From an uncultured Phocaeicola sp. (GTDB lineage: Bacteria; Bacteroidota; Bacteroidia; Bacteroidales; Bacteroidaceae), in assembly GCA_944321015.1 (NCBI GenBank), contig CALUJS010000006.1, forward strand, positions 6,849-70,848: a stretch of DNA of 64,000 nucleotides, written 5' to 3'. Shown here piece after piece: positions 11,661 through 60,630 of this stretch. Under the pieces are notes generated by a model that saw nothing but the letters and a program-made list of their open reading frames with translations, did no database searches and was not told where the DNA came from. A program made the position numbers and the translations under genes. Within the stretch, counting starts at the first letter, position 1, and each line of letters begins with the position of its first letter.

Positions 11661-11665
11661 TTAAC

Positions 11666-12424: not shown

Positions 12425-12443
12425 ATAACATTGAATATACGAC

Positions 12444-13037: not shown

Positions 13038-13047
13038 CCTTGCAACC

Positions 13048-13743
13048 ATGCTCATCGACTACCAACATGTGGATATCAATCAACAGGAGCACACCGTGCT
13101 GACCGATGTCAACTTTCATCTGGACGAGGGAGAGTTTGTCTACCTCATCGGCAAGGTAGGCACGGGAAAAACCAGTCTGCTCAAGACTTTCTATGGCGAA
13201 CTTCCCGTAGCCACGGGTAAGGCCCGGGTCTTGGACAATGACATGACTGCCATCCGCCAAAAGCACATCCCGGCATTGCGACGCCGGCTCGGAGTTGTCT
13301 TCCAGGACTTCCAGTTGCTTACCGATCGAACGGTTCATGACAATCTGGTCTTCGTGCTCAAGGCCACAGGTTGGAAGAACAAGCCCGAGATGCAGGCACG
13401 CATTGAAGAAGTATTGGCTTTGGTGGGCATGAAAAACAAAGGTTATAAGTTCCCTCACGAACTGTCCGGCGGAGAACAACAGCGCATTGTGCTGGCACGT
13501 GCCATACTGAACCAGCCCAAAATCGTATTGGCCGATGAGCCGACCGGCAACCTGGATGAAGAGACCAGTTGCCAAATCATGCAATTGTTGCGTGAAATAA
13601 GCGCCAAAGGTTCGGCTGTGGTCATGACGACGCATAACCTGAAGCTGGTACACGACTTTCCGGGCATCGTATATCAATGCCACGGACACCACATTGAGGA
13701 AATCACACAAACTTTTTACCAACAGCAATCAATTAACAACTAA
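13048..13743 (+). CDS. ftsE: Cell-division ABC ATPase FtsE-like protein
   Basis: 231 aa with Walker A 'GKVGTGKTS', ABC signature 'LSGGEQQR' and Walker B 'VLADEPT'. No ftsX-type permease is adjacent. Confidence 0.75.
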   Translation: MLIDYQHVDINQQEHTVLTDVNFHLDEGEFVYLIGKVGTGKTSLLKTFYGELPVATGKARVLDNDMTAIRQKHIPALRRRLGVVFQDFQLLTDRTVHDNLVFVLKATGWKNKPEMQARIEEVLALVGMKNKGYKFPHELSGGEQQRIVLARAILNQPKIVLADEPTGNLDEETSCQIMQLLREISAKGSAVVMTTHNLKLVHDFPGIVYQCHGHHIEEITQTFYQQQSINN

Positions 13744-13759
13744 CATAAGACAACTGACA

Positions 13760-41377: not shown

Positions 41378-44254
41378 ATGAAGCAGCGTTGCACTTTGCT
41401 CCTTGCCTTAATGTGGATTACCCTGACCGCCGGAGCACAAGGACTAGAAAAGACCGTGGGCGAACGGTTGGCCCAATTCTTCAGAGACTACACAACATCA
41501 CTGGCCGACATAGGACAAACTTCACTAGACTCATTCCGTATTGATAACCACAAACGCGCCTTATCTATCTATCCGGATAAACGTTTCGGATACCAACCGT
41601 TCACTCCGGAAAATGTCAAAGCGATATACCGCACCGTCAAACAATCACTCCCCGGCCCAGTGAATTACTATGACATAAGCATCTATGCCGACGGGAAACT
41701 TATCGAAGAACTGGTACCCAATGAACTCCGGTCACGAAAAGACCGGGATAACTCCCGACGCTGGAAGAACATCGGATACAACGGCTCCCCGTGGGTAAAC
41801 AACGAATCGCGTCCATACGACATTACGCGCGGGCTGAATGGACGACACATCGCCCTGTGGCAAAGTCATGGCCGCTATTACAAAAGCGACATCGGCCAAT
41901 GGACATGGCAACGCCCACGCTTGTTCTGCACCACCGAAGATCTCTTCACTCAATCGGTCGTGGTACCATATCTGATTCCCATGCTGGAAAATGCCGGCGC
42001 CGTAGTTTTTACGCCACGCGAACGTGACTGGCAACCACATGAAGCCATAGTCGACAACGACACGCCACAGGCGAACGGCTCCATCTATTACGAAGACAAC
42101 AACCGGCGTTCACCTTGGCAAACAACATCCAATACAGGATTCGCATACCGACGCGCCACATATCTCGACGGACAGAATCCTTTCACCGAAGGGACTGCGC
42201 GCATGGCGCCAACTTCCCGGAAAAAACGTGCACGCACCTTTGCCGAATGGATACCCAACATTCCCGAGAGCGGACGCTATGCGGTATACGTATCTTATCA
42301 GACTCTCCCCCAAAGCATCACCGATGCACAATATCTTGTATTCCACAAAGGAGGAGTTACACGCTTCTCTGTCAACCAACGGATAGGGGGAGGCACATGG
42401 GTCTACCTCGGAACATTCGAGTTTGACCGTGGTAGCAATGACTACGGCATGGTGGTGCTGACCAACGAAAGCAACCAACGCGGCGTGGTGTGTGCCGACG
42501 GAGTCCGATTTGGCGGAGGAATGGGCAATGTCGCACGCGGACGCACTCCTGAGACTGCACGCACCAGTGGCCTGCCCCGCTATCTGGAAGGAGCACGTTA
42601 TCAGGCGCAATGGAGCGGCATGCCTTACGAGGTCTATGCCGGAAAGACCGACTACCCCGATGACATCAACACCCGTTCGCGCATGGTGAACTATCTGTCC
42701 GGAGGTTCGCCCTACAATCCACGACAAAGAGGACTGGGAGTACCCTTTGACCTCTGTCTGGCTTTGCACAGCGATGCCGGATATTCTCCGCGTGACAGTC
42801 TCATCGGCTCGTTGGGCATCTACACCACCCACTTCAACGAGGAGAAACTGGCTGCAGGCGGCTCACGTTATGCCTCACGCGATTTGACCCAGACGATACT
42901 TACCGGATTGAAACGTGATTTGGAGGCAACTTTTCAGTTGTATTGGCCGATACGTGCCATGTGGAACCGAAATTACAGCGAGACACGCCTGCCCGCCGTG
43001 CCGTCCATGATACTCGAAATGCTCTCCCATCAGAACTTTGCCGACATGCGCTTGGGACATGACCCGAAATTCCGTTTTGCCCTGGCCCGCTCTGTTTACA
43101 AATCAGTATTGCGTTTTGAGTCCTCCATGCATGGTACCGATTACGAGGTGCAGCCTCTTCCTGTCACCCATTTCGCCATTGCTTTCACCGGACGTAAGAA
43201 TACGGTGCGTCTCAGCTGGCAACCGGCTTCCGATCCTTTGGAGCCTACTGCCACTCCGCGCCAATATGTGGTCTACACACGCATCGGTCGCGGCGGGTTC
43301 GATAACGGACGTGTGGTAAATGGCACTTCATGTACACAGAAGTTGGAACCCGGAATAGTCTACAGTTTCAAAGTCACGGCATTGAACCGAGGCGGAGAAA
43401 GCTTCCCTTCCGAAATACTTTCAGCCTGTCGTGCCCGCCACAGCCGGGCCGACCTGCTTGTAGTGAATGCGTTCGACCGTGTCGGAGGGCCTGCTACCCT
43501 TGAGACACACCGATTGCAAGGTTTCGACTTGACCGTCGACCCCGGCATGCCCCATCTGAACACTCCGGCCCTATGCGGCCGCCAACTGACTTTCGACCGC
43601 GAAGGTATCGGACGCGAAACATCCGACGGTCTGGGTTACAGCGGCAGCGAGTTGGAGGGCATGCTCATTGCCGGCAATACCTATGACTATCCGTTCATCC
43701 ACGGCAAAGCCATACAGGCTGCCGGTCATTACTCATTCACGTCGTGTAGTGATGAAGCCGTAGAAGATGGCCTTGTCAAGCTCAGTTCATATCCTGCCGT
43801 CGATATCATTCTCGGAGCAGAAAACACATCGCTCTCTCCCACCCTGACACAAGCCCTTACGACCTATTGCCAACAAGGAGGGCGGCTCGTGATGAGCGGC
43901 ATGGCACTCGACCGCATCGCATCCGCTACATTTGCCTCTGTCTTGGGCTTCCGCGCCACGGGAAATCTGCTTCACGACCCTGCCGATGCTGAAGTCTTTG
44001 GCACGAACCTACGGTTCGCCATCCCGCGCACGCCAAACGAAAACGTCTACTCCCTGCCCTCCCCGGCTTGTATCGAGCCATTGGGCGCATCCATTCAAAG
44101 CTTTGTTTACACAGGAACCAGTCATGGTGCCGGAACCGCCTGCCACACCCCTTCATGCCGCACCTTCATCCTTGGTTTCCCTCTGGAGTGCGTCACCGAC
44201 GAGTCGGCCCGTGCCCACATCATGGCCGCTGCGTTGCAATATCTGTTCCAATAA
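41378..44254 (+). CDS. Secreted multidomain protein: split Amidase_3-like fold with an inserted golvesin-C-like domain, an FN3 domain and an uncharacterised C-terminal domain (relatives are often auto-annotated 'xanthan lyase')
   Basis: 958 aa with the signal peptide MKQRCTLLLALMWITLTAGAQG. The amidase-like blocks are 'IALWQSHGRYY' and 'LALHSDAG...PSMILEMLSHQN'. The insert reads 'RYAVYVSYQTLPQ...GGTWVYLGTFEF'. The FN3-like block is 'RLSWQPASDP...YSFKVTALNRGGES'. All domain calls are from recall. Confidence 0.55.
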   Translation: MKQRCTLLLALMWITLTAGAQGLEKTVGERLAQFFRDYTTSLADIGQTSLDSFRIDNHKRALSIYPDKRFGYQPFTPENVKAIYRTVKQSLPGPVNYYDISIYADGKLIEELVPNELRSRKDRDNSRRWKNIGYNGSPWVNNESRPYDITRGLNGRHIALWQSHGRYYKSDIGQWTWQRPRLFCTTEDLFTQSVVVPYLIPMLENAGAVVFTPRERDWQPHEAIVDNDTPQANGSIYYEDNNRRSPWQTTSNTGFAYRRATYLDGQNPFTEGTARMAPTSRKKRARTFAEWIPNIPESGRYAVYVSYQTLPQSITDAQYLVFHKGGVTRFSVNQRIGGGTWVYLGTFEFDRGSNDYGMVVLTNESNQRGVVCADGVRFGGGMGNVARGRTPETARTSGLPRYLEGARYQAQWSGMPYEVYAGKTDYPDDINTRSRMVNYLSGGSPYNPRQRGLGVPFDLCLALHSDAGYSPRDSLIGSLGIYTTHFNEEKLAAGGSRYASRDLTQTILTGLKRDLEATFQLYWPIRAMWNRNYSETRLPAVPSMILEMLSHQNFADMRLGHDPKFRFALARSVYKSVLRFESSMHGTDYEVQPLPVTHFAIAFTGRKNTVRLSWQPASDPLEPTATPRQYVVYTRIGRGGFDNGRVVNGTSCTQKLEPGIVYSFKVTALNRGGESFPSEILSACRARHSRADLLVVNAFDRVGGPATLETHRLQGFDLTVDPGMPHLNTPALCGRQLTFDREGIGRETSDGLGYSGSELEGMLIAGNTYDYPFIHGKAIQAAGHYSFTSCSDEAVEDGLVKLSSYPAVDIILGAENTSLSPTLTQALTTYCQQGGRLVMSGMALDRIASATFASVLGFRATGNLLHDPADAEVFGTNLRFAIPRTPNENVYSLPSPACIEPLGASIQSFVYTGTSHGAGTACHTPSCRTFILGFPLECVTDESARAHIMAAALQYLFQ

Positions 44255-44388: not shown

Positions 44389-45171
44389 TTATTCTTTGCC
44401 AATAGATTTTTGCTCCTCCGTATCTCTATATTTCAATATTGATTTCCAATTTTCAACTTTCTTTTCTAATGTTTTTGCATTTGTATTACTCGTTGACTCT
44501 GCAGCTACAGAATCGATTTCTAATTTCATATTCTCAATATAAGAAAATGCCTCTTTGCCATTGCAAACAATTAAATGAATGTTAGGATATTGTTTCAGTA
44601 AATTCTCAATATCATTCAAATCTTCATTTGTAATATTAGCATCGGAACTTCCTTCACGTTCACAACTAGATAATACATCCCACAAAGCAATATGATGTTC
44701 TTTTAAACATTCTTCTTTTTCTTTATAATCATTAAATCCTTTATTGCCATGAAACAAGCAAGCTATAATCTTCCAAAAGCTATTTCTTGAGGAGGCATAA
44801 TATTCACCTTTCTGCAATGATTCCTCCCCCGGCATTGTACCCAATATTAAGATCTCCGAGTTTTCATCAATCAACGGCGGCAATGACTCTTTTAGTCGAG
44901 ATGCAACTTGTGTCTGCATCAACGTTGTGTCATCATTTTTCTCTTTTACAATTTCACCTTTCAGTATTCTTATTTTCTTAGACTCAATTAATTTGTCAAA
45001 CTTCTCAATCGTCATATCGGTGATATGAAAATCGTCTCTACCATAAAAACCGATCGCACGCATTTCGTCACGAATTTGTTTTTGCTCGCTTCTGAACGCG
45101 TTACATCTTTTAATAATAAGTTTTCTCAACAGAGCTATTTCAGCCTCTGTAAATACATTTTTTCCTTTCAT
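44389..45171 (-). CDS. UDG-superfamily family-6-like DNA-deoxyinosine (hypoxanthine) glycosylase with a ~95-aa N-terminal extension
   Basis: 260 aa. The C-terminal ~165 aa carry 'ILILGTMPGEESLQKGEYYASSRNSFWKII', matching my memory of HDG-type glycosylases (G-x-x-P-G/S ... YY...N.FW). The N-terminal segment 'MKGKNVFTEAEIALLRKLIIKRCNAFRSEQKQIRDEMRAIGFYG...' matches no family I recognise. Confidence 0.6.
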   Translation of the reverse strand: MKGKNVFTEAEIALLRKLIIKRCNAFRSEQKQIRDEMRAIGFYGRDDFHITDMTIEKFDKLIESKKIRILKGEIVKEKNDDTTLMQTQVASRLKESLPPLIDENSEILILGTMPGEESLQKGEYYASSRNSFWKIIACLFHGNKGFNDYKEKEECLKEHHIALWDVLSSCEREGSSDANITNEDLNDIENLLKQYPNIHLIVCNGKEAFSYIENMKLEIDSVAAESTSNTNAKTLEKKVENWKSILKYRDTEEQKSIGKE

Positions 45172-45186
45172 GATAATGTCTTTTTA

Positions 45187-46911
45187 TTAATAGTCTTGTA
45201 CAATTGTCTTATCTATTAAAAATAAATCATTCCCCACACATCTAATGTCATAACTATAACCATCAGCCATATAAAGATTAGGATAGCCCTCGCGTTTTTT
45301 GAATCCTAATTCTTTTTCAAAATATTCCTGTATAGCTATACCTATTCTTGGATCATCCTTTTTCAATGGCAACAAATCAGTATTAAGTTTTATGTGTATA
45401 GTACAAACAGAATACCACTCAGGTAACAAAATAACCTCATAATCAGCATATACTCCATTTATACCTTTTTCTACACCTAGCGAAATCCATCCTCTCAAAT
45501 CTTTAATATTTTTCATACGAATTATTTCCTCTGCTTTTTGTCCTATACGCGCTTTTCCAAATCCATCTTTCGTTATCTTGTTTAAGATAGAACCTACTAT
45601 TTTATGTTCATCAACATAAGAGGCTAGCACTCCACCCGACTTATAACATTCCTTAAGAGATTGTAGACTACTAGTTAAGAACTCATAAACCAATGGGTAC
45701 CCCGGTACTGATGTATAAGAGGGAATTACGATTTGGGCATATGTATCATTATTAATTGGTACTCCATTCTTATCAGCAAAATAGCATTTGTTGTCCTCAC
45801 AAATTACTATATTATTATACAAAGGGAAAAATCCTAATAAATTTTCAATACGATAAAGTTCCTCTCCTTTTTTATTTAGAGTTGAAACATTTATTCTATT
45901 ATTGCCATCATCTAGAGTTGACACAATATTCCCAACATAAGTTATATTATCCATCATTCCTAAAGCACATTGATATTGGGCGTTTCCAATGAGTTTTCCA
46001 TTCAAATCTATCTGCCTCCAAACATATTTATCATTTTGAAACATCGCTACAGAATCTACAAAAGGTGAAATGCTAAGAACTTCGGGCAATCTTTGTATTC
46101 TTTCTCCTTTTTCATTGCAAATAAAATTATCAAGAACACAATAATTATTGGCAATAATAGGTTTTAACATCATACTTGAACTCGGAGCATCTCCACTAAC
46201 TTCAAAAAGCTCTTTCCCATTTGTATCTATGGCAACATAGACTTTTCTATCTTCTCTATAAACTATAGCTTTTCCGTCATGAAAGGGATTTACTCTGTCA
46301 TAAATAGGTTCTATAACTACATGACCATTTGTATCTATAAATCCATATTTAGTATTTTCCAACATAAACCAAGCTCGTTTATCTGAAAAGAAAGGGCTTA
46401 CTAAAATAATTTCTTTTCCGTTATAAGGATTTAACCAAAAAGCAGTATCTCCCGTAGCAGTCAAATAATGCACACGCCCCTCCAATGATGCTACCGGAAG
46501 AAGTCCTTCACTAAATAGACCTCCAGCGACATAACCTTCAGGATCACCTAATTGTTTTGGTTCTTCTGACGCTATAAAATATTTGTAAACATCTATTCCT
46601 TCTTGAGAATTATATTCTCGAATTCGAAAAACTCCATTCACTGCATATGATGGTCTTTCTGTAAATTTATCCTCAAATAGTACTTTCCCATCTACTCCTA
46701 TTAATCCCCATTTCCCATCTTTTTCTGTTTGAAACGCTAAATGGGTAATTTTAGGGAAGGTATCATCTTTATTATCACCATTACAACTCGTCATAAACAT
46801 AGCGACGATGCCAATAATGGTAACTTTAAAAATCATCCATCCATGTTGCTTGTCTCTGTTTCTTTTTAATACAAAGCTATTCCAATTCATACTGATAACA
46901 TTTTCTCGCAT
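45187..46911 (-). CDS. WG-repeat (KWG-like) lipoprotein
   Basis: 574 aa with a TM/lipobox 'IIGIVAMFMTSC'. WG-type repeats include 'DGKWGLIGVDGKVLFEDKF' and 'KYGFIDTNGHVVIEPIYDRVNPFHDGKAIVY'. The start codon is ambiguous: several Met residues precede the TM segment. Confidence 0.65.
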   Translation of the reverse strand: MRENVISMNWNSFVLKRNRDKQHGWMIFKVTIIGIVAMFMTSCNGDNKDDTFPKITHLAFQTEKDGKWGLIGVDGKVLFEDKFTERPSYAVNGVFRIREYNSQEGIDVYKYFIASEEPKQLGDPEGYVAGGLFSEGLLPVASLEGRVHYLTATGDTAFWLNPYNGKEIILVSPFFSDKRAWFMLENTKYGFIDTNGHVVIEPIYDRVNPFHDGKAIVYREDRKVYVAIDTNGKELFEVSGDAPSSSMMLKPIIANNYCVLDNFICNEKGERIQRLPEVLSISPFVDSVAMFQNDKYVWRQIDLNGKLIGNAQYQCALGMMDNITYVGNIVSTLDDGNNRINVSTLNKKGEELYRIENLLGFFPLYNNIVICEDNKCYFADKNGVPINNDTYAQIVIPSYTSVPGYPLVYEFLTSSLQSLKECYKSGGVLASYVDEHKIVGSILNKITKDGFGKARIGQKAEEIIRMKNIKDLRGWISLGVEKGINGVYADYEVILLPEWYSVCTIHIKLNTDLLPLKKDDPRIGIAIQEYFEKELGFKKREGYPNLYMADGYSYDIRCVGNDLFLIDKTIVQDY

Positions 46912-47245: not shown

Positions 47246-47707
47246 TTAGTCTGCTATAAAGTCGTAAAGATCGGGGTCTTCGTGCATCAGGTCGTATTCC
47301 GTGGGATCGATGTCCCAGATGTTGACATCTGTTTCACCTTCGAGCGTCAGGTTACGGCGGTGCAGCGGGTCGAGCTCGTTGCGTTTGGGGGCCGGAATGC
47401 GCTTTGCTTTCCCCTGGCTGACAAGGGCCTGACATTGCTTCAGGGTCAGCGGTTTGGCGGATAGAATTTCATAATACTCCACCGTTTTCTTCGGATGTCC
47501 GGCCTTCGACTTTTCTACCGGATGGCGCTTGGCTTTGTCCTGCTTGACTTGGGGAACAGTTTTCACCTCGAGCACATAGCGATATTGACGCTGGGCGGCA
47601 AGCAGAACAGGGCACAGAAGCAGCAATGCGAACAGGCATCTGCGCCAACAGATTGCGTTTATTTTCATGGTTGTCATCGTTTGTATGGTTAAAATTGTTG
47701 ATTTCAT
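47246..47707 (-). CDS. Hypothetical secreted basic protein (153 aa, or 140 aa from the alternative start)
   Basis: It has a signal-like segment 'MKINAICWRRCLFALLLLCPVLLAAQ' (alternative ATG at 47668), a K-rich centre and an acidic C-terminus. No known domain was recognised. Confidence 0.45.
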   Translation of the reverse strand: MKSTILTIQTMTTMKINAICWRRCLFALLLLCPVLLAAQRQYRYVLEVKTVPQVKQDKAKRHPVEKSKAGHPKKTVEYYEILSAKPLTLKQCQALVSQGKAKRIPAPKRNELDPLHRRNLTLEGETDVNIWDIDPTEYDLMHEDPDLYDFIAD

Positions 47708-47983: not shown

Positions 47984-49555
47984 TCAATGTCCGTTGAAGA
48001 ATGTGTAAAGTGCTATCATCACGAGAATCAGCAATACCCACAAAATGACTACCGATGAAGCAGGTTTTTCCAACTGCCCGTAATCCAAAGCATTTCCCTG
48101 CGGCCGTTTGTCCAGCAGGCTGATGATTGTCATACCGATGCAGATGGCAACAAACAAATCAAATGAAAGCATCATGAAATGCGGCCAGATGCCTGCATAT
48201 TGTTCAGGCGGGAACACCCACAAATACAGAATGCCGACCAGAATGCTGAATGCCGTGCCAAATGTCAAGGCAAAATTGGCAGCACGCGTGGTAGCACGCT
48301 TCCAGAATACGCCAAATAGGAATACGGCCGACATGGGAGGAGCGATGAAGCCCAACACGGACTGGAACACATTGAATAGGTTGAGTCCCTTGATGCTGTC
48401 AATGGCGATGCATATCACGATGGAAATGATGGCGCCGACCACCGTCACAAGACGTCCCACGCGGATGATTTCTTTCTCTGACGCAGCCGGATTATATTTC
48501 TTCAGATAAATGTCTATGGTAAACACGGTGCTCAACGCATTCAGTGCCGAACCTACGGTGCTGACCAAAGCTGCCGTCAGCACAGCCATGACCAGACCGA
48601 CCATACCGACGGGGAACAAATTGGTCACCAATGTCATATAGGCCTCATCGGGATTCTGCAACGTGGGGAACAAAGCAAAGCAGATGATACCGGGAATGAT
48701 GTACAAAGGCACATCCAGAATTTTCAGCCATCCCGTAAAGTTCGCGCCAAGCTGTCCCTGCTTCAGGCTTTTGGCCGCAAGCACAGGCTGCACCATGGAC
48801 TGGTCGGTACACCAGAACCACACACCCATGACCGGATAGCCCAACAAGATGGGCAACCATGGGAATTCCGGGTCGTCATTGGGACGGAACAGGTTCCAAT
48901 AATCGGCAGGCACAGCGGCAGTCAGCCCTTCAACGCCTCCGACTTTCACCAAACCGGCCACGGTCAATACAGCCGACACGACGATGAGCAGTGCCATCTG
49001 GAATACATTGGTATAGGCCACGGCCTTCAAACCGCCGGCTATCGTGAAGAAAGCCGATATAAGCAGCAGAATCAATGCCGACTGCCACATCGGGATGTCA
49101 AAGATTTGACGAATCAGAATGCCGCCGGCAAAAAGCGTCAACGCCAACCATGAAATCAGAATCGTCACAATGGTGTACCAAGCCAGAATGTTACGCGTGG
49201 ACTGGCCGAAACGGCGTCCCATGAACTCCGGTAGCGTGGTCACCTTGGCACCCAAATAACGGGGCGCAAAGACAAATGCCAGCAAGCAAATGAAAACAAA
49301 TGCATACCATGCATAATTACCGGATACCACACCCGTGGTAAATCCGGCACTGGCAGAAGCAATCAACATGGACGGCCCCACATTGGTGCCCCACATGGAA
49401 AAGCCGATGTGATGCCAGCTCAACGAATGTTCAGCCATGAACAGGCTGCTTCCCTTCTTACGTTTCAGACTGGCCCATATGCCGATGGCCAACAATATGA
49501 TGAAATAAACGGCTAATATGCCCCAGTCCAAAGGTTCCAAAAATTTTGCGCTCAT
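47984..49555 (-). CDS. Sodium:solute symporter family (SSS/SGLT-like) transporter
   Basis: 523 aa and polytopic, with about 13-14 hydrophobic segments by eye. SSS-like features include 'HSLSWHHIGFSMWGTNVGPSMLIASASAG' and 'TLPEFMGRRFG'. Confidence 0.8.
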   Translation of the reverse strand: MSAKFLEPLDWGILAVYFIILLAIGIWASLKRKKGSSLFMAEHSLSWHHIGFSMWGTNVGPSMLIASASAGFTTGVVSGNYAWYAFVFICLLAFVFAPRYLGAKVTTLPEFMGRRFGQSTRNILAWYTIVTILISWLALTLFAGGILIRQIFDIPMWQSALILLLISAFFTIAGGLKAVAYTNVFQMALLIVVSAVLTVAGLVKVGGVEGLTAAVPADYWNLFRPNDDPEFPWLPILLGYPVMGVWFWCTDQSMVQPVLAAKSLKQGQLGANFTGWLKILDVPLYIIPGIICFALFPTLQNPDEAYMTLVTNLFPVGMVGLVMAVLTAALVSTVGSALNALSTVFTIDIYLKKYNPAASEKEIIRVGRLVTVVGAIISIVICIAIDSIKGLNLFNVFQSVLGFIAPPMSAVFLFGVFWKRATTRAANFALTFGTAFSILVGILYLWVFPPEQYAGIWPHFMMLSFDLFVAICIGMTIISLLDKRPQGNALDYGQLEKPASSVVILWVLLILVMIALYTFFNGH

Positions 49556-49593
49556 ATTTATATCAGATATTAAGGTTTGCTATTACAAAATGA

Positions 49594-49629
49594 AAACATA
49601 GAAGCCGGACGCATCCGGTTTCTATGTTT
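49594..49629 (-). terminator. Strong hairpin with T-rich tail between the corrinoid-methyltransferase gene and the symporter gene (terminator or attenuator)
   Basis: AAACATAGAA (49594-49603) pairs with TTCTATGTTT (49620-49629), and an inner CCGGA/TCCGG pairing extends the stem. On the minus strand the hairpin is followed by TCATTTTG, so together with the 3' arm the transcript reads TTCTATGTTTTCATTTTG. Confidence 0.55.
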
Positions 49630-49644
49630 ACTGAATCTTCGTTA

Positions 49645-51453
49645 TCAAGCAGCTCCAATCAGATGTTTGGCTTCCTGCACTGCCGAATTGGCGTTGTCGC
49701 TGTATCCGTCAGCACCAATCTCGTCGGCAAAAGCCTGACTTACCGGAGCGCCTCCCACCATAATCTTCACCTGGTCACGAATGCCTGCGGCCTTGACTGC
49801 CTCAATGACATCTTTCATGTAAGTCATGGTAGTAGTCAGCAAAGCACTCATGCAGAGGATATCGGCCTGATTGTCCTTCACAGCCTGCACGAATTTCTCT
49901 GCCGGAACATCTATGCCGATGTTGATGACCTCAAAACCACTGCCTTCCAACATGGAAGCCACCAAGTTTTTGCCGATGTCGTGCAAGTCGCCCTTCACAG
50001 TACCGATGACAACACGTCCGATGGTGGCCGAAGCATTTCCCTGCAACAACGGTTTCAGCAGTTCCAAAGCTCCTTTCATGGCACGGCCTGCCATTAACAG
50101 CTGGGGAACAAACGCTTTTCCGTCCTGGAAACGCTGTCCGACCTCGCCCATGGCCTTAATCATGTAATTGTTGATAATCACTTGGGGAGGAACGCCTTTC
50201 TCTATGGCTTTCTTAGTCACTTCTACTGCCGGTTCGAGTTTACCGTTTACAATAGCGTCAAATAAAGGTTTCAACTCCTCATCCTCTTGTTGAGAAGCTT
50301 GAACATGGATTGTCTCGTCTTGCATTGCTTGTTTTTCTTTTACTTGTTCTGTTTTTACGTTACTTGCTGTTGATGATGAGGAAGAACCTCTGTATTCTTC
50401 CACGATGCGCATGGCCTGCTCCACTTCCTGTTCGTTGTGGAAGTCCATCTCCAAGTGTACGCCGTCCGCGCCGATATTGTCGAGCAACGGTTTCAGTTCA
50501 TCCACTGTCACCCAACAAGCCATAATGCTCTTGCCGGCTGCCAGAATTTGTTTATATAGGTCATACCACTTCGGAGAACCGCCCTGAGGCTCGCCCACGC
50601 CCGGAGTCCACTGAATGGCATCCAGTTCCTCGATTTCGAGCAGAGCCGGCAAGTGGCGCATGGCACCCACTCCGTCCAAATGATAGAGCGTGTAGTCTAT
50701 CTTCTGACATTGCTCGCGAATGAACGGCTGCACGAAGCGGCGATAATCATCCTCGCTAATCATCGTGGAAATGTCGCTTTGCACTTTCGTCATTTTGCCG
50801 GGAGCCCATGACGAGAAGTAGCAGAAAGCCATTTCATCGCCCTCACGAATGATGTCATACAACTCATCGAACACCTTGAAATAGATATCGTTGATTTGCT
50901 GCATCTGACGCTCCAGCACTTCCGGTTGCATCACCGTGTCCAGCAACACCTTGTCTGTTCCCTTGATGGCAGCCAGCACATCCATGCCTTCCATCAAGTC
51001 GGGCATGCCCACATAGTAATGTCCCTGCGCTTTCTTCTTACAAGCACGCAGCAAGTCCTTGTGAAGCTGCCAGGCTGCATTGTTTTCCGGATTAAACGTG
51101 ATATCATCCGTATAGTTTGGATCCGGGTGAATCCAAATGGTATCTTCTCCGCCTTCAAACACACCGCCCAAAATCGCGGCCAGCGAACCGGGTCCCAGTT
51201 GCGTATTGGCCACCGGAAGCATGTCGGCCATCAACGAGCTGTGTGCCACATACCAATCCAAATAGGCTGCGCGCCATTCCGGGTCAAACCATTTCTGATT
51301 CAAGTCTTTTGCAGGAGCAGGCGCGGGAACATCCGCATGAGGCTTCACGCCTTCCTGGAAATGCTCCCACATGTTTAACACAATGCCTTTATGGTTCCAC
51401 CAATCAATGTAGTGTTGCTTGGTTTCTTCCATGTTCTTTTTCCATGTTTCCAT
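49645..51453 (-). CDS. Fusion protein: URO-D/MtaA/CmuA-like TIM-barrel methyltransferase domain plus corrinoid (B12)-binding module
   Basis: 602 aa. The C-terminal ~210 aa form a textbook corrinoid protein. It has a helical cap ('LFDAIVNGKLEPAVEVTKKAIEKGVPPQVIINNYMIKAMGEVGQRFQDG') and a Rossmann domain with DxHxxG 'GDLHDIGKN', 'CMSALLTTT' and 'MVGGAP'. The N-terminal ~370 aa resemble URO-D-family methyltransferases ('GPGSLAAILGG', 'SDISTMISEDDYRRFVQPF', 'YTLYHLDGVG', 'LDAIQW'). A Ser-rich linker 'GSSSSSTAS' joins the two. There is no signal peptide. Confidence 0.65.
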   Translation of the reverse strand: METWKKNMEETKQHYIDWWNHKGIVLNMWEHFQEGVKPHADVPAPAPAKDLNQKWFDPEWRAAYLDWYVAHSSLMADMLPVANTQLGPGSLAAILGGVFEGGEDTIWIHPDPNYTDDITFNPENNAAWQLHKDLLRACKKKAQGHYYVGMPDLMEGMDVLAAIKGTDKVLLDTVMQPEVLERQMQQINDIYFKVFDELYDIIREGDEMAFCYFSSWAPGKMTKVQSDISTMISEDDYRRFVQPFIREQCQKIDYTLYHLDGVGAMRHLPALLEIEELDAIQWTPGVGEPQGGSPKWYDLYKQILAAGKSIMACWVTVDELKPLLDNIGADGVHLEMDFHNEQEVEQAMRIVEEYRGSSSSSTASNVKTEQVKEKQAMQDETIHVQASQQEDEELKPLFDAIVNGKLEPAVEVTKKAIEKGVPPQVIINNYMIKAMGEVGQRFQDGKAFVPQLLMAGRAMKGALELLKPLLQGNASATIGRVVIGTVKGDLHDIGKNLVASMLEGSGFEVINIGIDVPAEKFVQAVKDNQADILCMSALLTTTMTYMKDVIEAVKAAGIRDQVKIMVGGAPVSQAFADEIGADGYSDNANSAVQEAKHLIGAA

Positions 51454-51510
51454 AAATCTCTGCCTTTTAAATTATAATAGATTACTTTATTTACGTCATC
51501 GTCTCGTTCG

Positions 51511-53754
51511 TTATCTCCAAATGCCTTTGAAATCCGCATCAATGCACAGTGGCACGCTCTTCGTGAGATTCATTTCGTCCGTACAGTCCACATCCTCCGG
51601 ATAAACGGAGATTACATCGCCTTCACGCACATAAACCGGCATCTCGTCCAGCGGAACCTTCACGCCATACAGCCATCGGCCGCCTTCAATTCGCTCGCCG
51701 GTGAAGAAATTCACCCATTTGCCTTCGGGCAAATAGATGTCGCGGCAATCCTCACTGTTCATTACCGGAGCCACCAGGAAACTGTCGCCGAAGTAATATT
51801 CATCATCAATATGCCAGCAGACACGGTCGGTCGGATGTTCGAACACCAGCGCACGAAGCACGGCATATCCCGTCTCGGTAGCCTTCCGGCTTTGCTCCAT
51901 GATGTAGGGTATCAGCTTATAACGAAGTTTCCACCATTTCTTCACCATCGGAGCTATGTTGGGATAGAACCATGGCTCACGTTTGTTTGTGCCATGATAG
52001 CGCATGTGCGACGAGAACACGCCAAACTCCGTCCAGCGCATGTACACCTTGTCGTCCACGATGGAATTCATGAAGTTGGGCAAGGTGTGGAAGCCCGGCA
52101 CATCGTGGCTCCAGAAAGCGAAGCCGGACAAACCGAAGTGCAATCCGCCTTTCAGCGAACCGGCCATACCATCCCACGAACTGCAAGAGTCACCACCCCA
52201 ATGCAGCGGATAGCGTTGGCAACCGGCCCATGCCGCACGTGCCCACACGATGCCGTCGCCCGTCACGTCCTTGGTGATTTCGTAAGCTGCTTTCTGGTAA
52301 AGCAGTGCATAAAGATTGTTCAGCAGTTCGGGCGACATACCTTTGTACTTGGCATCCATATGAATATTCTCGCCAAAGTCGGTCTTGATGCAGACCACAC
52401 CCATATCGAGCAAATTCTTCAACAGTCCCTTATACCACTCGGTAGCCTTGGGATAGGTAAAATCAATGGTACCGGCATAATCCAGTGCCGAGAAATTAGA
52501 TCCTTCCGAGGCCTGCTTCTTGGTGAGCGGACCTATATAATCATTGGCACGTGCCTCATCTATTTGTTCGGCATCCTCTGCCACATAGGGCAACTGCCAC
52601 AGAGACACGCGATAGCCTTGCTTCTTCAGCCCACGGATGAACTTCTCCGGATTGGGGAAACGTTCTTCATTGAACTTCCATTCACACAACCAGTCTGTGC
52701 GGAACCAACCGGTGTCCAAGTGTATCACATCGCACGGATAGTGCTCGTCACGCATCCGGTCGCAGATTTCCTGCACTTCATCGGCACTAAAATAGCTCAT
52801 GCGGCTCATCCAGATGCCGAAGCTCCAAAGAGGAGGCATGGAAGGATAGCCCGTCAGGTCACGATAGCCGCGCAGAATTTCCTCCACGGTGTCACCGGCT
52901 ATGATAAACGCGTCTATCATAGCTTGGTCACTAAGGAACTCCACCGAACGGGTCGAAACATCTGCCAATGAAAGTTTGCTGTGCGCACATGTATGATAGA
53001 ACGTACCATACATACGGCTGGAAAGATAGAACGGTATATTTTTATAGGTACGACGGTTGTTCACGCCCTGTCCATCCTGATTTTTCAAGAAAAACGTATG
53101 GCCGCTCAAGTCCATCTTCGTAAAACGTTCACCCGTTCCGGCAAAACACTCATCGGCTTTGCACTCGAACGACAAAGTGGCACGCTCCTTATGTCCGTCT
53201 TTCACACAGTAAGCCAAAGGCAGTCCGTCATAACGGGGAGGCGAAAAATGGTCATAGGCAGCCAAACGAATCTCGCGCTTGCCATCAGGATACACCACCA
53301 CGTCCAGCGTCTCCTGCGGGGCAGGCTGCAAGTCGCTCCAATGGTCCAGCACAGGCTCCTTCACGTTAATCCAGGCACGGCGCACTCCATCAGCCGAACG
53401 CACGGTCCACTCGCCGTCGCCCGCCTCCACGTGCAAAGGAAGTTTCTGCACGCGTTCACTGAACTGAAGCATTTCCGACTGATCGGTCATCTCCCAATCG
53501 CCAAAGCCACAGAACAGCCGAATTATTTTATTGCTGTATTGACGGATTATCAACGTATATTCTTCGCGTGGCACAGCCGTATCGGCTGCCATGTCGTTGG
53601 AAAGAAGTTGCTTCTGGAAAGGTACCACCACATGCACATCGCCGTCCTTTTCATACACGGCAGTTGGTTTGCAAGCCTTCCACAACGACTCGTTCTTCGA
53701 CAAATCCGGGTCGAAGTCCATGAAATCAAATAAATGATAGTTGGTCGGTTTCAT
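51511..53754 (-). CDS. GH31 glycoside hydrolase, YicI-type (alpha-xylosidase-like), cytoplasmic
   Basis: 747 aa with no signal peptide. 'MGVVCIKTDFGENI' matches the nucleophile motif KTDFGE of YicI-clade GH31 enzymes rather than the WxDMNE motif of alpha-glucosidases. Confidence 0.8.
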   Translation of the reverse strand: MKPTNYHLFDFMDFDPDLSKNESLWKACKPTAVYEKDGDVHVVVPFQKQLLSNDMAADTAVPREEYTLIIRQYSNKIIRLFCGFGDWEMTDQSEMLQFSERVQKLPLHVEAGDGEWTVRSADGVRRAWINVKEPVLDHWSDLQPAPQETLDVVVYPDGKREIRLAAYDHFSPPRYDGLPLAYCVKDGHKERATLSFECKADECFAGTGERFTKMDLSGHTFFLKNQDGQGVNNRRTYKNIPFYLSSRMYGTFYHTCAHSKLSLADVSTRSVEFLSDQAMIDAFIIAGDTVEEILRGYRDLTGYPSMPPLWSFGIWMSRMSYFSADEVQEICDRMRDEHYPCDVIHLDTGWFRTDWLCEWKFNEERFPNPEKFIRGLKKQGYRVSLWQLPYVAEDAEQIDEARANDYIGPLTKKQASEGSNFSALDYAGTIDFTYPKATEWYKGLLKNLLDMGVVCIKTDFGENIHMDAKYKGMSPELLNNLYALLYQKAAYEITKDVTGDGIVWARAAWAGCQRYPLHWGGDSCSSWDGMAGSLKGGLHFGLSGFAFWSHDVPGFHTLPNFMNSIVDDKVYMRWTEFGVFSSHMRYHGTNKREPWFYPNIAPMVKKWWKLRYKLIPYIMEQSRKATETGYAVLRALVFEHPTDRVCWHIDDEYYFGDSFLVAPVMNSEDCRDIYLPEGKWVNFFTGERIEGGRWLYGVKVPLDEMPVYVREGDVISVYPEDVDCTDEMNLTKSVPLCIDADFKGIWR

Positions 53755-53784
53755 CTTTATTGTTTATATTGTAATGTTCTGCTA

Positions 53785-55629
53785 TTAGTTACCGTTTTTG
53801 TGTCGTATGCCCGCTTTCATCTTCACTGCTTCGTCCACTTTCGGGCCATTCACCTTCCACACATTGTGCGGACCGGGCTGATTGGAATCGAAACGCTCCT
53901 CCGGACACCAGTTGTCCTCCACAGTATAGCCGTCGGTCGCCTCATCAAAATAGATGTAGAATGCACGCTCGTTGGTGGCATAAGGCGCATCAACCAAATG
54001 CTCAATACGATTGCCCCGCATCACGGAACCGGGCTGATATGACAATGTATATAAGCCTCCGGCATCATACAGCCGTTGGGCGAAATGGTGTACATAATTG
54101 GCCTCCACCCGGTTGTTTTTCATTCCGCTCTCCAACAACGTCCAGCCCCAGCCCACACAGATACCGGAATAGTTGACATATGACACTTCGTTATGGGCAA
54201 TGAGCACATCCTTCACATAACCTGCGCCGATACCCACACATCCCCAATCCTCATTGGTCACGCGGGTAATCAGGTTATCCGTCACTTCAATATTCGAGCA
54301 CAATTCATCCATATTAACCGGTTTGAAAGGTACGTGCGTCTCAAAACCGCCATCGGGAAAAGTTCCCATCTGCAAAGCCGTGCCGCCAATATCGGTAAAA
54401 GTGCAACCACGCACCGACGAACGGGTCACCGCCCACTCATAGTCCAAGCCGGTGGCTCCCATGTGTCGGAATGTGCAGCCTTCAAAATGAATGTCGTGTG
54501 CGCCACGCACGGCGACAGCCGCTTCCGGACGGGCTATCCAGGCCTGATTCTCCAATGCAGCTTTTTCAGGCAATCCGGGTATGGGGAGTTTGTAGGCATC
54601 CAACAGTCGGAATCCGCCTTGAAGCGTCACATGTCCTTCATAAGACGGGCGATTCCATGCCACGTGTTCAAAACGCACGTTCTCAAACCGAATATGATGC
54701 ACCGGACGCTCCAGCGAACCATCTACCGTAACGAGCCTGTCCAAAGCTGGCACCACGACTGAAGCCTGCGCCATGTCCTCTCCGGGACGGGGATAATAAT
54801 AGATACGACCGGAAGGATACTCCTGGTACCACTCGCCCGGCTGGTCGAGCAAAGCCAAATCATTTACAAGACAAAACGAAGAATTGCCTTTTTCACCCCC
54901 GATGACCGGTTGCGGCCACGGGTGGGCAAACTCCAACCGGCTTTCCGGATTATGGAAACGCACCACAGTGGAATCGCCCATCAGCTGCATGTCGCGCACT
55001 CGGAGAATGGCTATCGCCCAACGTTGGTGCACAATCATTTCCAATTGCGGAGCCTTTTCCAACCCTTGTATGGCCGGTGTCGGAATGGTGATTGTTTTAT
55101 CTTGTGGATTAAAGTTTATCATACGTTCCATGACACCATCCTCAAATTGGGACGCCCGCTGGGCTTTCTGCCCGTTTACCCACATCTGGCGGAATTCCAG
55201 ATGACGGTTGCCCACACGAGGCGCATCGGCCACCCATATCCTACCTTGCACAGATGCCGGCAGGCGGGTACCGGGAACGTCCAACCGCTGCCAGCCCGTC
55301 ACTTCCACACCTCCGCTGACAACGGCCCCATCTTCTCCCTGAATCACAGTGGGACTGTCGGCAGTGCCGCTATCTTCCGGACGAAAAAACAAGGGCTTGG
55401 CCTGGGGATAGATGCCCGGAGCCAAATGGATGTAGATGCCCCCTTCTGCTTCGGCTCTCTTCAGCCGACGCCATTCGCGCGCCTGCTTTACAGCCTGCAC
55501 CACCGTGCGCAAGGGGGATTCCTGTGTACCAATGTTTGTATCACTGCCTTGGGGAGAGACCCATATGTCGCCTGCCCACGCCAATTGGCAGGAACAACAA
55601 AGGGCTAAGATGGATAGTATTTTCTTCAT
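53785..55629 (-). CDS. Secreted right-handed parallel beta-helix repeat protein (candidate glycoside hydrolase or lyase)
   Basis: 614 aa with the signal/lipobox 'MKKILSILALCCSCQLAWAG'. Beta-helix-type repeats include 'IHFEGCTFRHMGATGLDYEWAVTRSSVRGCTFTDIGGTALQMG' and 'VLIAHNEVSYVNYSGICVGWGW'. The CAZy family is not determinable by eye. Confidence 0.6.
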   Translation of the reverse strand: MKKILSILALCCSCQLAWAGDIWVSPQGSDTNIGTQESPLRTVVQAVKQAREWRRLKRAEAEGGIYIHLAPGIYPQAKPLFFRPEDSGTADSPTVIQGEDGAVVSGGVEVTGWQRLDVPGTRLPASVQGRIWVADAPRVGNRHLEFRQMWVNGQKAQRASQFEDGVMERMINFNPQDKTITIPTPAIQGLEKAPQLEMIVHQRWAIAILRVRDMQLMGDSTVVRFHNPESRLEFAHPWPQPVIGGEKGNSSFCLVNDLALLDQPGEWYQEYPSGRIYYYPRPGEDMAQASVVVPALDRLVTVDGSLERPVHHIRFENVRFEHVAWNRPSYEGHVTLQGGFRLLDAYKLPIPGLPEKAALENQAWIARPEAAVAVRGAHDIHFEGCTFRHMGATGLDYEWAVTRSSVRGCTFTDIGGTALQMGTFPDGGFETHVPFKPVNMDELCSNIEVTDNLITRVTNEDWGCVGIGAGYVKDVLIAHNEVSYVNYSGICVGWGWTLLESGMKNNRVEANYVHHFAQRLYDAGGLYTLSYQPGSVMRGNRIEHLVDAPYATNERAFYIYFDEATDGYTVEDNWCPEERFDSNQPGPHNVWKVNGPKVDEAVKMKAGIRHKNGN

Positions 55630-55667
55630 TTATACTGTGTTTTGTACATTATCATAGCTTAGACGGG

Positions 55668-55675
55668 ACAAACTT
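55668..55675 (-). promoter_or_regulatory. Candidate -7 promoter box TAAGTTTG upstream of the beta-helix gene
   Basis: The minus strand reads TAAGTTTG, an exact TAnnTTTG match ending 38 nt upstream of ATG 55629. No -33 TTTG occurs at the expected spacing. Confidence 0.35.
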
Positions 55676-56022
55676 ACAATAAATCCATGAAATAATACGA
55701 AGAAAAGCCCACTTTTACATCGACACGGATGCAATAATTTGCAATTGATACAACAAAAGCGCACAATGCTTGCCAAGAAACAGTATCTTATCCTTTTGCC
55801 GACAATTATTTGCGAAGTGATTGCCCCGAGCGCATTGAAACAGACCAATTAGTTTAATCGGCATCTGCATGATTCTCGGTGGAGTCGTGGTGATAAACTT
55901 ATTTTCGGAATCGGCAGGACATTGACTTGTCCATATCTAATATAACATCAAAAAGATTGAGACAAAAGACAAGAAATAAATTATCCGGACAGGCGAAAAC
56001 GTTATCAGGCACTTGGCCTGGG

Positions 56023-56138
56023 CATCAGATTATCACCGCCCTAAGCGTGCATATCACCGCTCGCGAGCGCGGATATGCACGCTCACGTCCCTTCATATTG
56101 CCGCTCACGAGCGGTGATATGAAGAGATAAACGGGATG
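56023..56138. repeat. 22-bp-phased ATAT/CGCTC-GAGCG array, locus R5 (4 units plus one degenerate)
   Basis: ATAT cores at 56051, 56073, 56095 and 56117, exactly 22 bp apart, with a degenerate ATTA at 56029. Units include atatcaccgctcgcgagcgcgg, atatgcacgctcacgtcccttc and atattgccgctcacgagcggtg. It lies just 3' of the HAD gene. Confidence 0.85.
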
Positions 56139-56172
56139 TTTATCAATAATCCGCTCAAATACGAATGTCCGA

Positions 56173-59945: not shown

Positions 59946-60527
59946 ATGCACTCCACTCTCGAAATCGCCATCATCGACCCCAACACGTTGGCCGCTCTGG
60001 GGCTGCGCACCATATTGGAAGAGATGCTGCCGGAAACCGTCGTGCGCGCGTTTTCCTCTTACGCCGCCCTCATGGACGACACGCCGGACATGTATGCCCA
60101 CTATTTCGTGTCGTCACACATCTACTTTGAGCATACCGCCTTCTTCCTCGAGCGTCGTCCGAAGACCATCGTGCTCACCACGGGCGAGGTCTCACTACCC
60201 GTCCCCACCCTCGACATCAGCCTGCCGCAAGATGTCCTGGTGGCGCGCATCGTGAACTTGCGTCAACACGGGCACGAACACCACACGCACCCGGCCTCCG
60301 ACGCCTCGGCCCCAATCACCAACGCCCTCTCCCCGCGTGAAGCGGAAGTGCTGACTCTCGTGGCACGCGGCCTGATGAACAAGGAGATAGCCGACCGCCT
60401 TCACATCGGACTCACCACCGTGATATCTCACCGGCGCAACATCAGCGCCAAGCTCGGCATACGTTCCGCCTCGGGTCTGGCCATCTATGCCGTCATGCAC
60501 GGACTGGTCGAGGCCGACAGCATCTGA
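59946..60527 (+). CDS. LuxR/GerE-type transcriptional regulator with a degenerate (pseudo-)receiver domain
   Basis: 193 aa with a C-terminal HTH 'LSPREAEVLTLVARGLMNKEIADRLHIGLTTVISHRRNISAKLG'. The N-terminal receiver-like fold has 'IAIIDPN' at beta1. It has 'AHYFVSSH' where the phospho-acceptor 'LLD' would normally be. Confidence 0.75.
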   Translation: MHSTLEIAIIDPNTLAALGLRTILEEMLPETVVRAFSSYAALMDDTPDMYAHYFVSSHIYFEHTAFFLERRPKTIVLTTGEVSLPVPTLDISLPQDVLVARIVNLRQHGHEHHTHPASDASAPITNALSPREAEVLTLVARGLMNKEIADRLHIGLTTVISHRRNISAKLGIRSASGLAIYAVMHGLVEADSI

Positions 60528-60562
60528 ATCTTCCCACAGGAGAATTACAAGCAGGAGCATAT

Positions 60563-60578
60563 TCCTCATTAATGAGGA
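60563..60578. promoter_or_regulatory. Perfect 16-bp palindrome TCCTCATTAATGAGGA between the LuxR-type gene and the TonB-dependent receptor gene (candidate operator)
   Basis: It lies 35 nt after the regulator's stop and 52 nt before the receptor's ATG at 60631. No T-run follows, so it does not look like a terminator. Confidence 0.4.
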
Positions 60579-60630
60579 TTGCCTGTGTGAGGCGGATGCG
60601 CTTACTTTGCACCCGCTAAACAAACTTACC

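Follow-up and report, generated by a model that had tools for sequence, protein, structure and literature searches.

A gene block of an uncultured Phocaeicola linking glycoside import and hydrolysis to a corrinoid methyltransferase: a candidate route for sugar O-demethylation

Genes of the block

A block of four genes lying on the minus strand was analyzed in a 64,000-nucleotide stretch of DNA from an uncultured Phocaeicola sp. (contig CALUJS010000006.1, positions 6,849 to 70,848), hereafter called the window. In the order in which they are read, the genes encode a glycoside hydrolase (GH) of family GH141 (53785..55629, 614 amino acids, aa), a cytoplasmic YicI-type GH31 alpha-glycosidase (51511..53754, 747 aa), a corrinoid fusion protein (49645..51453, 602 aa) and a sodium:solute symporter (SSF; 47984..49555, 523 aa). 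The gaps between them measure 30, 57 and 89 bp. An initial annotation, drawn from the sequence alone, had placed the genes at these coordinates, which the open reading frame (ORF) listing of the window reproduces exactly. It had described the products as a secreted beta-helix protein possibly related to GH141, a YicI-type GH31 with the KTDFGE motif, a fusion with a canonical corrinoid module and a Na+/solute symporter, and these identifications all held in domain and structure searches.

The first protein matches the GH141_M (PF21231, 2.7e-68) and Beta_helix families of Pfam. Its closest solved relative is PDB entry 5mqp (BT_1002 of Bacteroides thetaiotaomicron), which aligns to residues 16-609 with an E value of 1.8e-179 and 45% identity. 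The two Asp residues called catalytic in BT1002 (PMC10154630) align to Asp in the window protein. Orthology to BT_1002 was considered and rejected, because identity to a BT_0338-type copy found in a related locus (L013) reaches 67%, against 45% to BT_1002. By its sequence, the window protein is the orthologue of BT_0338, and BT_1002 is a paralogue. N-termini of the block proteins were judged by eye, with no predictor; that of the GH141 protein, MKKILSILALCCSCQLAWAGD, is signal-peptide-like, reading MKKILSILALCCSCQLAWA and then GD, and no comparable leader is seen in the GH31 and fusion proteins.

The GH31 protein features three GH31 Pfam domains and the nucleophile motif CIKTDFGEN. Its best NCBIfam match is the alpha-xylosidase model PRK10658 (2.4e-142, 476 bits, for a cut-off of 606). 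In PDB searches, residues 1-746 align with entry 5f7c (1495 bits, 83% identity), and YicI is hit with E values of 1e-104 to 1e-107. The sequence marks the protein as the orthologue of BT_0339, which we take to be the protein of entry 5f7c; the GH31 of locus L013 is 99.2% identical to the latter. BT0339 is named 'alpha-xylosidase' in PMC10434189, and likewise in PGAP annotation. The symporter, matching PF00474 (2.7e-56) and TIGR00813 (2e-81), is the proposed inner-membrane importer of the glycoside.

The corrinoid fusion protein and its N-terminal barrel

A Ser-rich linker and a corrinoid-binding module make up the C-terminal part of the fusion protein (49645..50373, minus strand). The module consists of a B12-binding_2 cap (aa 395-467, nt 50053-50271; PF02607, 9.6e-22) and a Rossmann B12-binding domain (aa 479-592, nt 49678-50019; PF02310, 6e-31), and is canonical, as the DxHxxG (GDLHDIGKN), SALL and GG (VGGAP) motifs are all readable. 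Among NCBIfam models, MtgC, MtbC and pyl_corrinoid match it best, though none of the three matches reaches the cut-off of its model.

The N-terminal domain (aa 1 to about 360, 50374..51453, minus strand) is the proposed donor-side methyltransferase (MT1) of the system. The first 375 or so residues of the protein have no Pfam match at E<=10, the uroporphyrinogen decarboxylase (URO-D) family included. The domain has no PDB sequence match by phmmer, and a profile search of the PDB returned merely MetE, at E 0.64. Since direct HMM and sequence searches were uninformative, the fold had to be predicted. An exhaustive search of 1.84 billion representative sequences found 2,006 clusters at 50% identity belonging to the same family (E<=1e-3). 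Members are mostly stand-alone proteins of 355-370 aa, with 28-42% identity. Few bear a name, this being 'hypothetical protein' or, in one case, 'uroporphyrinogen decarboxylase/cobalamin-independent methionine synthase family protein'. W19, W107, D227, H258, D260 and G261 are invariant in an alignment of 66 sequences, the last three residues being part of a Y-H-L-D-G motif, and 26 of the 66 stand-alone relatives match Pfam URO-D at E<=1 (best, 5e-6).

The AlphaFold2 model obtained with the 66-sequence alignment as input is a (beta/alpha)8 barrel (pLDDT 94.4, pTM 0.91). Foldseek ranks Methanosarcina MtaA (4ay7, methylcobalamin:CoM methyltransferase) first among PDB entries (E 5.9e-8, TM about 0.6), followed by URO-D and then by MetE, and hhalign relates the barrel to the URO-D proteins encoded near its relatives (see below) with a probability of 90.7%. 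Identity to MtaA is about 12%. The zinc motif H-x-C-G of MtaA is replaced in the barrel by H258-L-D260-G, and no distal Cys is conserved; as hhalign sets YHLDG two residues out of register with the LHNCG of the URO-D partner, the correspondence of H-x-D to H-x-C is suggestive only. The domain had been called URO-D/MtaA-like in the initial annotation, and both fold and profile comparison support the likeness; the corresponding Pfam match, whose absence that annotation had set down as counting against its reading, is what is missing. Judged from sequence and model, the barrel is a remote member of the URO-D/MtaA/MetE superfamily that falls outside Pfam URO-D and forms a separate, unnamed family.

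Conservation of the gene set in Bacteroidales

Relatives of the barrel were found in at least 569 species when GTDB was scanned, one genome per species, with an alignment tighter than the 66-sequence set. The 80 best loci, all from Bacteroidales, were compared; 46 of them have full flanks, and partner genes were identified by a tblastn panel. The 80 loci come from Bacteroides, Phocaeicola (P. vulgatus ATCC 8482 among them), many Prevotella, Xylanibacter, Duncaniella and a contig labelled Barnesiella. Orthologues of the fusion gene had been expected to lie close to carbohydrate-active enzymes and symporters, and they do: GH31 and SSF genes were found in 39/46 full-flank loci, GH141 in 37/46, and the linkage recurs across phyla. 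Genes for a MetH-type activation domain (35/46) and for an MtaA-like URO-D protein (34/46) are nearly as frequent, and 30/46 loci carry all five partners; the genes are arranged in three or more different orders. That the set stays together while its order changes argues strongly for functional coupling. As the same block is kept in dozens of species, the arrangement of glycoside hydrolases, symporter and fusion gene is far beyond chance, and we are highly confident that a module for glycoside import and hydrolysis is coupled here to a corrinoid methyltransferase.

The closest comparison is provided by a Bacteroides locus, in which an orthologue of the fusion with 81% identity, denominated 'corrinoid protein' by NCBI, is part of the same block of GH141, GH31, fusion and SSF genes. 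Two genes converge on the block, coding for a MetH activation-domain protein (PF02965) and a 336-aa URO-D protein (PF01208, 4e-53), and beyond them are rpiB, a transketolase gene, GH51 and GH127. The best solved relative of the URO-D partner is MtaA (3.4e-17), and the motifs LHNCG and SSGC, carrying the zinc ligands (H-x-C...C), are kept. The URO-D, activation-domain, rpiB, transketolase, GH51 and DUF456 proteins of the Bacteroides locus have no tblastn match in the 64-kb window.

Most relatives of the fusion protein are larger. In P0124 (995 aa), a homocysteine (Hcy) S-methyltransferase domain (PF02574, 4e-83) is set between barrel and corrinoid module. Three-part fusions of this kind (barrel, Hcy methyltransferase, B12 module) are found in 66/80 loci, two-part fusions as in the window in 14/80. 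Homocysteine had not been foreseen as the methyl acceptor; we infer this role from the fused Hcy domain of the 66 species out of 80.

A gene for L-fucose isomerase (FucI) lies within 10 kb in 8/80 loci, in two types of arrangement. In the Prevotella loci L020, L048, L052 and L074, the three-part fusion, activation-domain and URO-D genes are followed, in the interval of about 12-21 kb, by genes for a DHDPS-family aldolase, a second SSF and FucI; GH141 and GH31 are both missing. These loci may represent a variant serving a free methyl sugar such as 2-O-methyl-fucose. In 16 rumen Prevotella loci, a HemN-like radical SAM gene (Radical_SAM plus HemN_C; one of these is L009:8740-9942) lies directly upstream of the three-part fusion, on the same strand.

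Related loci outside Bacteroidales

Barrel genes of other bacteria are found in comparable company. P0180 (L085:886-3813, 975 aa) unites in one chain a pterin-binding domain, a B12 module with both cap and Rossmann domain, and the novel barrel, and is in its domain content a whole donor-to-tetrahydrofolate demethylase in a single protein; DUF2284, an AraC regulator and GH31 are encoded nearby. L090 and L091 host LacI, a sugar ABC transporter, URO-D, a GH31 46% identical to that of the window and two barrel paralogues, and L093 an AraC regulator, a sugar ABC transporter, the barrel and GH31. In Opitutus sp. ER46, a sugar MFS transporter and GH78 precede the barrel, DUF1638, a stand-alone corrinoid protein and URO-D. 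In L096, a GH29 fucosidase and a set of genes resembling the non-phosphorylative fucose pathway precede the barrel gene. The segment L169:5200-16900 contains, in this order, genes for a corrinoid protein, three URO-D proteins, the barrel, a stand-alone Hcy S-methyltransferase (2e-64), DUF1638 and RACo. In all, L169, which is of environmental origin, has four URO-D paralogues and the novel barrel around one corrinoid protein; this suggests that several methyl donors feed one corrinoid and one methionine-forming step.

A metagenome scan centred on the Verrucomicrobia-type clade yielded 27 loci whose flanks extend for 4 kb or more on both sides. GH31 is present in 21/27, the fucose-pathway-like set in 9/27 and GH141, 48-50% identical to that of the window, in 6/27. 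SSF is replaced in such loci by an MFS_2/GPH glycoside symporter. In L130, a divergent GH141 gene is followed by the barrel, an MFS_2/GPH symporter and GH31, with an AraC-type sugar regulator; the locus matches the window block, the family of the transporter having been swapped. In L109, also of the Verrucomicrobia type, GH127 and a GH20b-like protein are encoded upstream, and the interval between barrel and GH31 (11100-14876) hosts two proteins without a family match, a PhyH-type Fe/2-oxoglutarate dioxygenase and a GFO/IDH/MocA oxidoreductase.

Comparison with known systems

The chemistry proposed for the cluster is known: in the O-demethylases of acetogens and Desulfitobacterium (vanillate/veratrol, MtvABC), the methyl group of an ether passes to a Co(I) corrinoid and from this to an acceptor. 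Shared features are the URO-D-superfamily barrel of methyltransferase I, the corrinoid module with B12-binding_2 cap and reductive reactivation (RACo in L169). Acetogen enzymes act on aryl methyl ethers, whereas sugar, hence alkyl, methyl ethers are the proposed substrates here. The acceptor is in acetogens tetrahydrofolate, reached via a pterin-binding methyltransferase II, and in the present loci mostly an Hcy domain or an MtaA-like Zn-thiol enzyme would serve instead. The cluster differs further in its MetH-type activase, which is S-adenosylmethionine-dependent, in the setting of GH141, GH31 and sugar symporter, and in an MT1 that the Pfam URO-D model does not detect. What would be new are the MT1 family, the substrate class, the MetH-like architecture and the genomic setting.

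The architecture recalls MetH. Three-part relatives have the Hcy barrel, cap and B12 Rossmann domain, with the activation domain encoded alongside, and the expected product is methionine. The pterin-binding barrel that receives methyl-tetrahydrofolate in MetH is, however, replaced by the N-terminal URO-D-like barrel, and a gene of its own encodes the activation domain. MetH itself unites Hcy, pterin, cap plus B12 and activation domains in one chain; of these, cap and B12 domains alone occur in the window protein, which has neither Hcy nor activation domain.

CmuA similarly has an MtaA-like barrel N-terminal to a corrinoid-binding domain in one protein, and it is MtaA that comes closest to the barrel in structure and to the URO-D partner in sequence. 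The donors of CmuA and MtaA/MtaCB are chloromethane or methanol, the acceptors tetrahydrofolate or coenzyme M, and carbohydrate context is absent. The H-x-C...C ligands of MtaA-type Zn-thiol methyltransferases, absent from the barrel, are kept in the Bacteroidales URO-D partner.

Among systems acting on sugars, cytochrome P450 of marine Bacteroidota demethylates 6-O-methyl-D-galactose, needs O2 and redox partners, and releases formaldehyde. There too a sugar O-methyl ether is removed for central catabolism by an enzyme encoded with glycoside hydrolases; here, in contrast, the transfer would be anaerobic and the methyl group conserved on B12. With the rhamnogalacturonan-II (RG-II) degradome of B. 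thetaiotaomicron (BT_1002, GH141; BT_0984, GH139) the cluster shares the GH141 family and its catalytic Asp residues. It lies nonetheless outside the three RG-II polysaccharide utilization loci (PULs), and GH31 and the B12 enzyme are absent from the published degradome.

Rhamnogalacturonan-II and the cluster of B. thetaiotaomicron

BT1002, the nearest characterised GH141, frees 2-O-Me-D-Xyl-alpha1,3-L-Fuc from RG-II chain A, according to PMC10154630. The bond between 2-O-Me-Xyl and Fuc is presented in PMC12282258 as the sole RG-II linkage that B. thetaiotaomicron is not known to cleave. The initial annotation had seen in the window cluster a logical means to use this leftover. This is in tension with the finding that B. 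thetaiotaomicron itself carries the whole cluster, BT_0338-BT_0343, BT_0338 being the GH141 and BT_0339 the GH31. With the disaccharide reportedly left uncleaved, the cluster would be either unexpressed in the conditions employed or directed at some other substrate.

BT_0338 is upregulated along with the RG-II genes BT_1002 and BT_0984 (PMC8264420). An RG-II PUL of a Flavobacterium ends with genes listed as 'unk unk unk GH31_3', then GH141, and redundant GH141 copies are differentially expressed by P. vulgatus on RG-II, as reported in a preprint. BT_0340, BT_0342 and BT_0343 have been labelled 'Mta methylamine/trimethylamine methyltransferase' (PMC8941943). The label was rejected, since no MttB-, MtbB- or MtmB-type domain is found in the window or in the loci examined. 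The statement in the initial annotation that no characterised corrinoid methyltransferase module is known from a carbohydrate-catabolic operon agrees with full-text literature searches, which found no description of sugar methyl-ether demethylation of this type, nor of the function of the cluster; a paper of 2025 devoted to 2-O-methyl-fucosidases is silent on demethylation.

Proposed pathway and alternatives

The barrel is joined to two unrelated acceptor modules (Hcy and pterin-binding), to corrinoid proteins and to two kinds of activase (MetH and RACo), and for these reasons it is most simply understood as MT1, the enzyme on the donor side in a corrinoid system of methyl transfer. Because GH31 and a glycoside-type importer, and often GH141 or fucose-catabolic genes, are its constant companions, the donor would be an imported glycoside that yields fucose. 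On balance, the cluster is probably a glycoside-salvage module built on a corrinoid O-demethylase, plausibly devoted to the 2-O-Me-Xyl-Fuc of RG-II, and with methionine as product.

The pathway may be envisaged as follows. In the periplasm, the GH141 enzyme would cut a small fucose-containing methyl-ether glycoside from a pectic fragment, the best candidate being 2-O-methyl-D-xylose-alpha1,3-L-fucose of RG-II chain A, and the SSF symporter would bring it into the cytoplasm. The barrel of the fusion, acting as MT1, would move the O-methyl group to the Co(I) corrinoid bound to its own C-terminal module, and before or after this step the cytoplasmic GH31 would cleave the alpha-xylosidic bond. The methyl group of methyl-Co(III) would finally pass to homocysteine, giving methionine. 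In most relatives this could occur via the fused Hcy domain; in the two-part version of Bacteroides, Phocaeicola and Mediterranea the acceptor step would take place in trans, likely on the MtaA-like URO-D protein. From general enzymology, a methyl group at O-2 is expected to impede a retaining GH31 as well as the aldose-ketose isomerases that act in xylose and fucose catabolism, and a dedicated demethylase would then be needed.

Gene and domain content, fold and conserved linkage are data of observation. Which way the methyl group moves, from what substrate and to what acceptor, is deduced from sequences and models, and these points deserve different degrees of trust. That a methyl-ether sugar is O-demethylated and homocysteine takes up the methyl group is rather likely. 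The RG-II disaccharide 2-O-Me-Xyl-Fuc is put forward as a tentative choice of substrate. The broadest proposition, an O2-independent, B12-based route that strips 2-O-methyl sugars of RG-II, passes the methyl group to homocysteine and relies on a new family of sugar methyl-ether:corrinoid methyltransferases, is a conjecture worth entertaining, and may well fail in one of its parts.

Several facts weigh against the pathway as drawn. The GH141 of the cluster is merely 45% identical to BT_1002, and the family also includes xylanases and endo-fucanases. The GH31 remains below the NCBIfam cut-off for alpha-xylosidases, and the depositors of 5f7c named their protein alpha-glucosidase. B. thetaiotaomicron has the cluster, yet reportedly leaves 2-O-Me-Xyl-Fuc uncleaved. 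BT_0340, BT_0342 and BT_0343 are the only known B12 proteins missed by a B12 affinity probe (PMC8941943), and the RG-II-induced P. vulgatus loci BVU_2642-2648 and BVU_1983-1985, for which no other paper naming the genes was found, are no more than candidates for this cluster. An acceptor-side methyltransferase (MT2), activation domain and Hcy domain are all absent from the 64-kb window, so that the copy described here may depend on unlinked genes or be non-functional. A corrinoid protein is encoded within 10 kb in only 2/27 Verrucomicrobia-type loci, and the URO-D partner has no evident role where an Hcy domain is already fused. The support comes from sequence, predicted fold and gene context.

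Some of these facts would be accommodated by the same corrinoid O-demethylation acting on another substrate, such as 2-O-methyl-L-fucose, free or glycosidic, a methylated alpha-glucoside, or methylated sugars of algal or bacterial polysaccharides. Possession of the cluster by a species that leaves the disaccharide, the distance of the GH141 from BT_1002, the naming of 5f7c and the missed alpha-xylosidase cut-off all point in this direction. So do the Prevotella loci featuring fusion, activation domain, URO-D, aldolase, second SSF and FucI without GH141 and GH31, the Opitutus locus, where the system is joined to a GH78 rhamnosidase, and the wide distribution of the family among metagenome contigs from the environment, where one locus may hold several paralogous barrels. 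Against these stand the preservation of the triad GH141, GH31 and novel methyltransferase in two phyla, the better fit of the triad to a fucosyl-linked alpha-xyloside than to other known natural methyl sugars, and the position of GH31_3 and GH141 at the end of a canonical RG-II PUL of a Flavobacterium. We consider a substrate of this other sort unlikely, if by no means negligible.

A donor that is not a sugar but a small methyl compound set free as pectin is broken down (methanol from methyl esters, or methylamines in keeping with the published 'Mta' label) would turn the enzyme into an alternative B12 methionine synthase, linked to glycosidases via shared regulation only. It is known that pectin degradation releases methanol, Hcy and MetH activation domains point to methionine as output whatever the donor, and MtgC and MtbC are the best NCBIfam matches of the corrinoid module. 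All these matches fall below cut-offs, however, and no MT1 of the MttB, MtbB, MtmB or MtaB type is encoded in any locus examined. A small diffusible donor, moreover, leaves unexplained the coupling across phyla to GH31, to SSF, GPH or sugar ABC transporters and to LacI/AraC regulators. The hypothesis is accordingly given little credit.

Least credible of all is that the barrel is no methyltransferase, being a URO-D-like decarboxylase or sugar-modifying enzyme with the B12 module of Bacteroidales put to another use, for example regulation or cofactor sensing. Decarboxylation is likewise compatible with the URO-D fold, H-x-D stands where MtaA has its zinc motif H-x-C and the second Cys is missing, corrinoid proteins are near in just 2/27 Verrucomicrobia-type loci, and L090 and L093 have GH31 and barrel with no B12 protein. 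But the barrel is fused in frame to Hcy and B12 domains in 66/80 species and to pterin-binding and B12 domains in P0180, is found inside operons for corrinoid protein, RACo and Hcy methyltransferase, has the MetH activation domain as neighbour in 35/46 loci, and corrinoid proteins are in general often encoded apart from methyltransferases, as mtaA is from mtaCB.

Surroundings of the block

The intergenic region upstream of the block (55630..56172) presumably contains its promoter. Bacteroides promoters have the consensus TAnnTTTG, and TAAGTTTG, a Bacteroides-type -7 motif located at 55669-55676, 40 nt ahead of the GH141 ATG, is a candidate promoter element, proposed from its sequence and position. 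Scanning for sigma-70 promoters and terminators gave counts within shuffled expectation. As Bacteroides promoters are not of the sigma-70 type, the scan is uninformative, and operon boundaries are drawn from gene spacing. At Rfam gathering thresholds, the window and seven related loci gave neither riboswitches nor other RNAs.

Synteny of the window with Phocaeicola and Bacteroides is limited to about 47,98x-55,6xx. Flanking genes are ordinary, and encode, by Pfam and NCBIfam, an HAD phosphatase, RadA, an FAD protein, a glycosylase of the UDG family and a WG-repeat protein. A TonB-dependent receptor gene (60487-62988) is found 5 kb off on the opposite strand, without a SusD partner. Classification of the block as a PUL was rejected, because a SusC/SusD pair is not present at its flanks.

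Directly downstream of the symporter gene, the segment 44300-47900 is low in GC (0.36-0.41, against about 0.50 around). It includes genes for a UDG-superfamily DNA-deoxyinosine glycosylase (44389-45171; TIGR04274, 2e-44) and a WG-repeat protein (45187-46911), and an orphan ORF of 153 aa with no family match (47246-47707). The MetH-activation-domain and URO-D genes of Bacteroides and Phocaeicola relatives are located at this very place, and the low-GC segment may thus be an insertion or replacement that removed them. Adjoining the segment, a gene on the plus strand (41378-44254, local GC 0.55) codes for a 958-aa protein with a Golvesin C-terminal domain and fn3; it appears unrelated to the cluster.

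Implications

The cluster is present in the genetically tractable B. thetaiotaomicron (BT_0338-0343) and in P. vulgatus, the crystal structure 5f7c is available for the GH31, and defined RG-II oligosaccharides can increasingly be obtained (preprint 10.64898/2026.03.13.711244). If the proposed function is true, the orphan B12-dependent proteins BT_0340, BT_0342 and BT_0343, whose genes are among the few B12-dependent sets of gut Bacteroides to which no function is assigned, would acquire a role, and gut Bacteroides a further reason to compete for B12. Donors of known corrinoid methyltransferases are methanol, methylamines, betaines, chloromethane and aryl methyl ethers. To these, a new substrate class would be added with the methyl ethers of sugars, and the barrel would represent a new family of MT1 enzymes, which comprises about 2,000 clusters at 50% identity. 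The fate of the RG-II linkage that B. thetaiotaomicron is not known to cleave, and that of 2-O-methyl sugars, would be explained. Dietary pectin would be a direct source of methyl groups for methionine, and fibre intake would be tied in this way to bacterial one-carbon metabolism.

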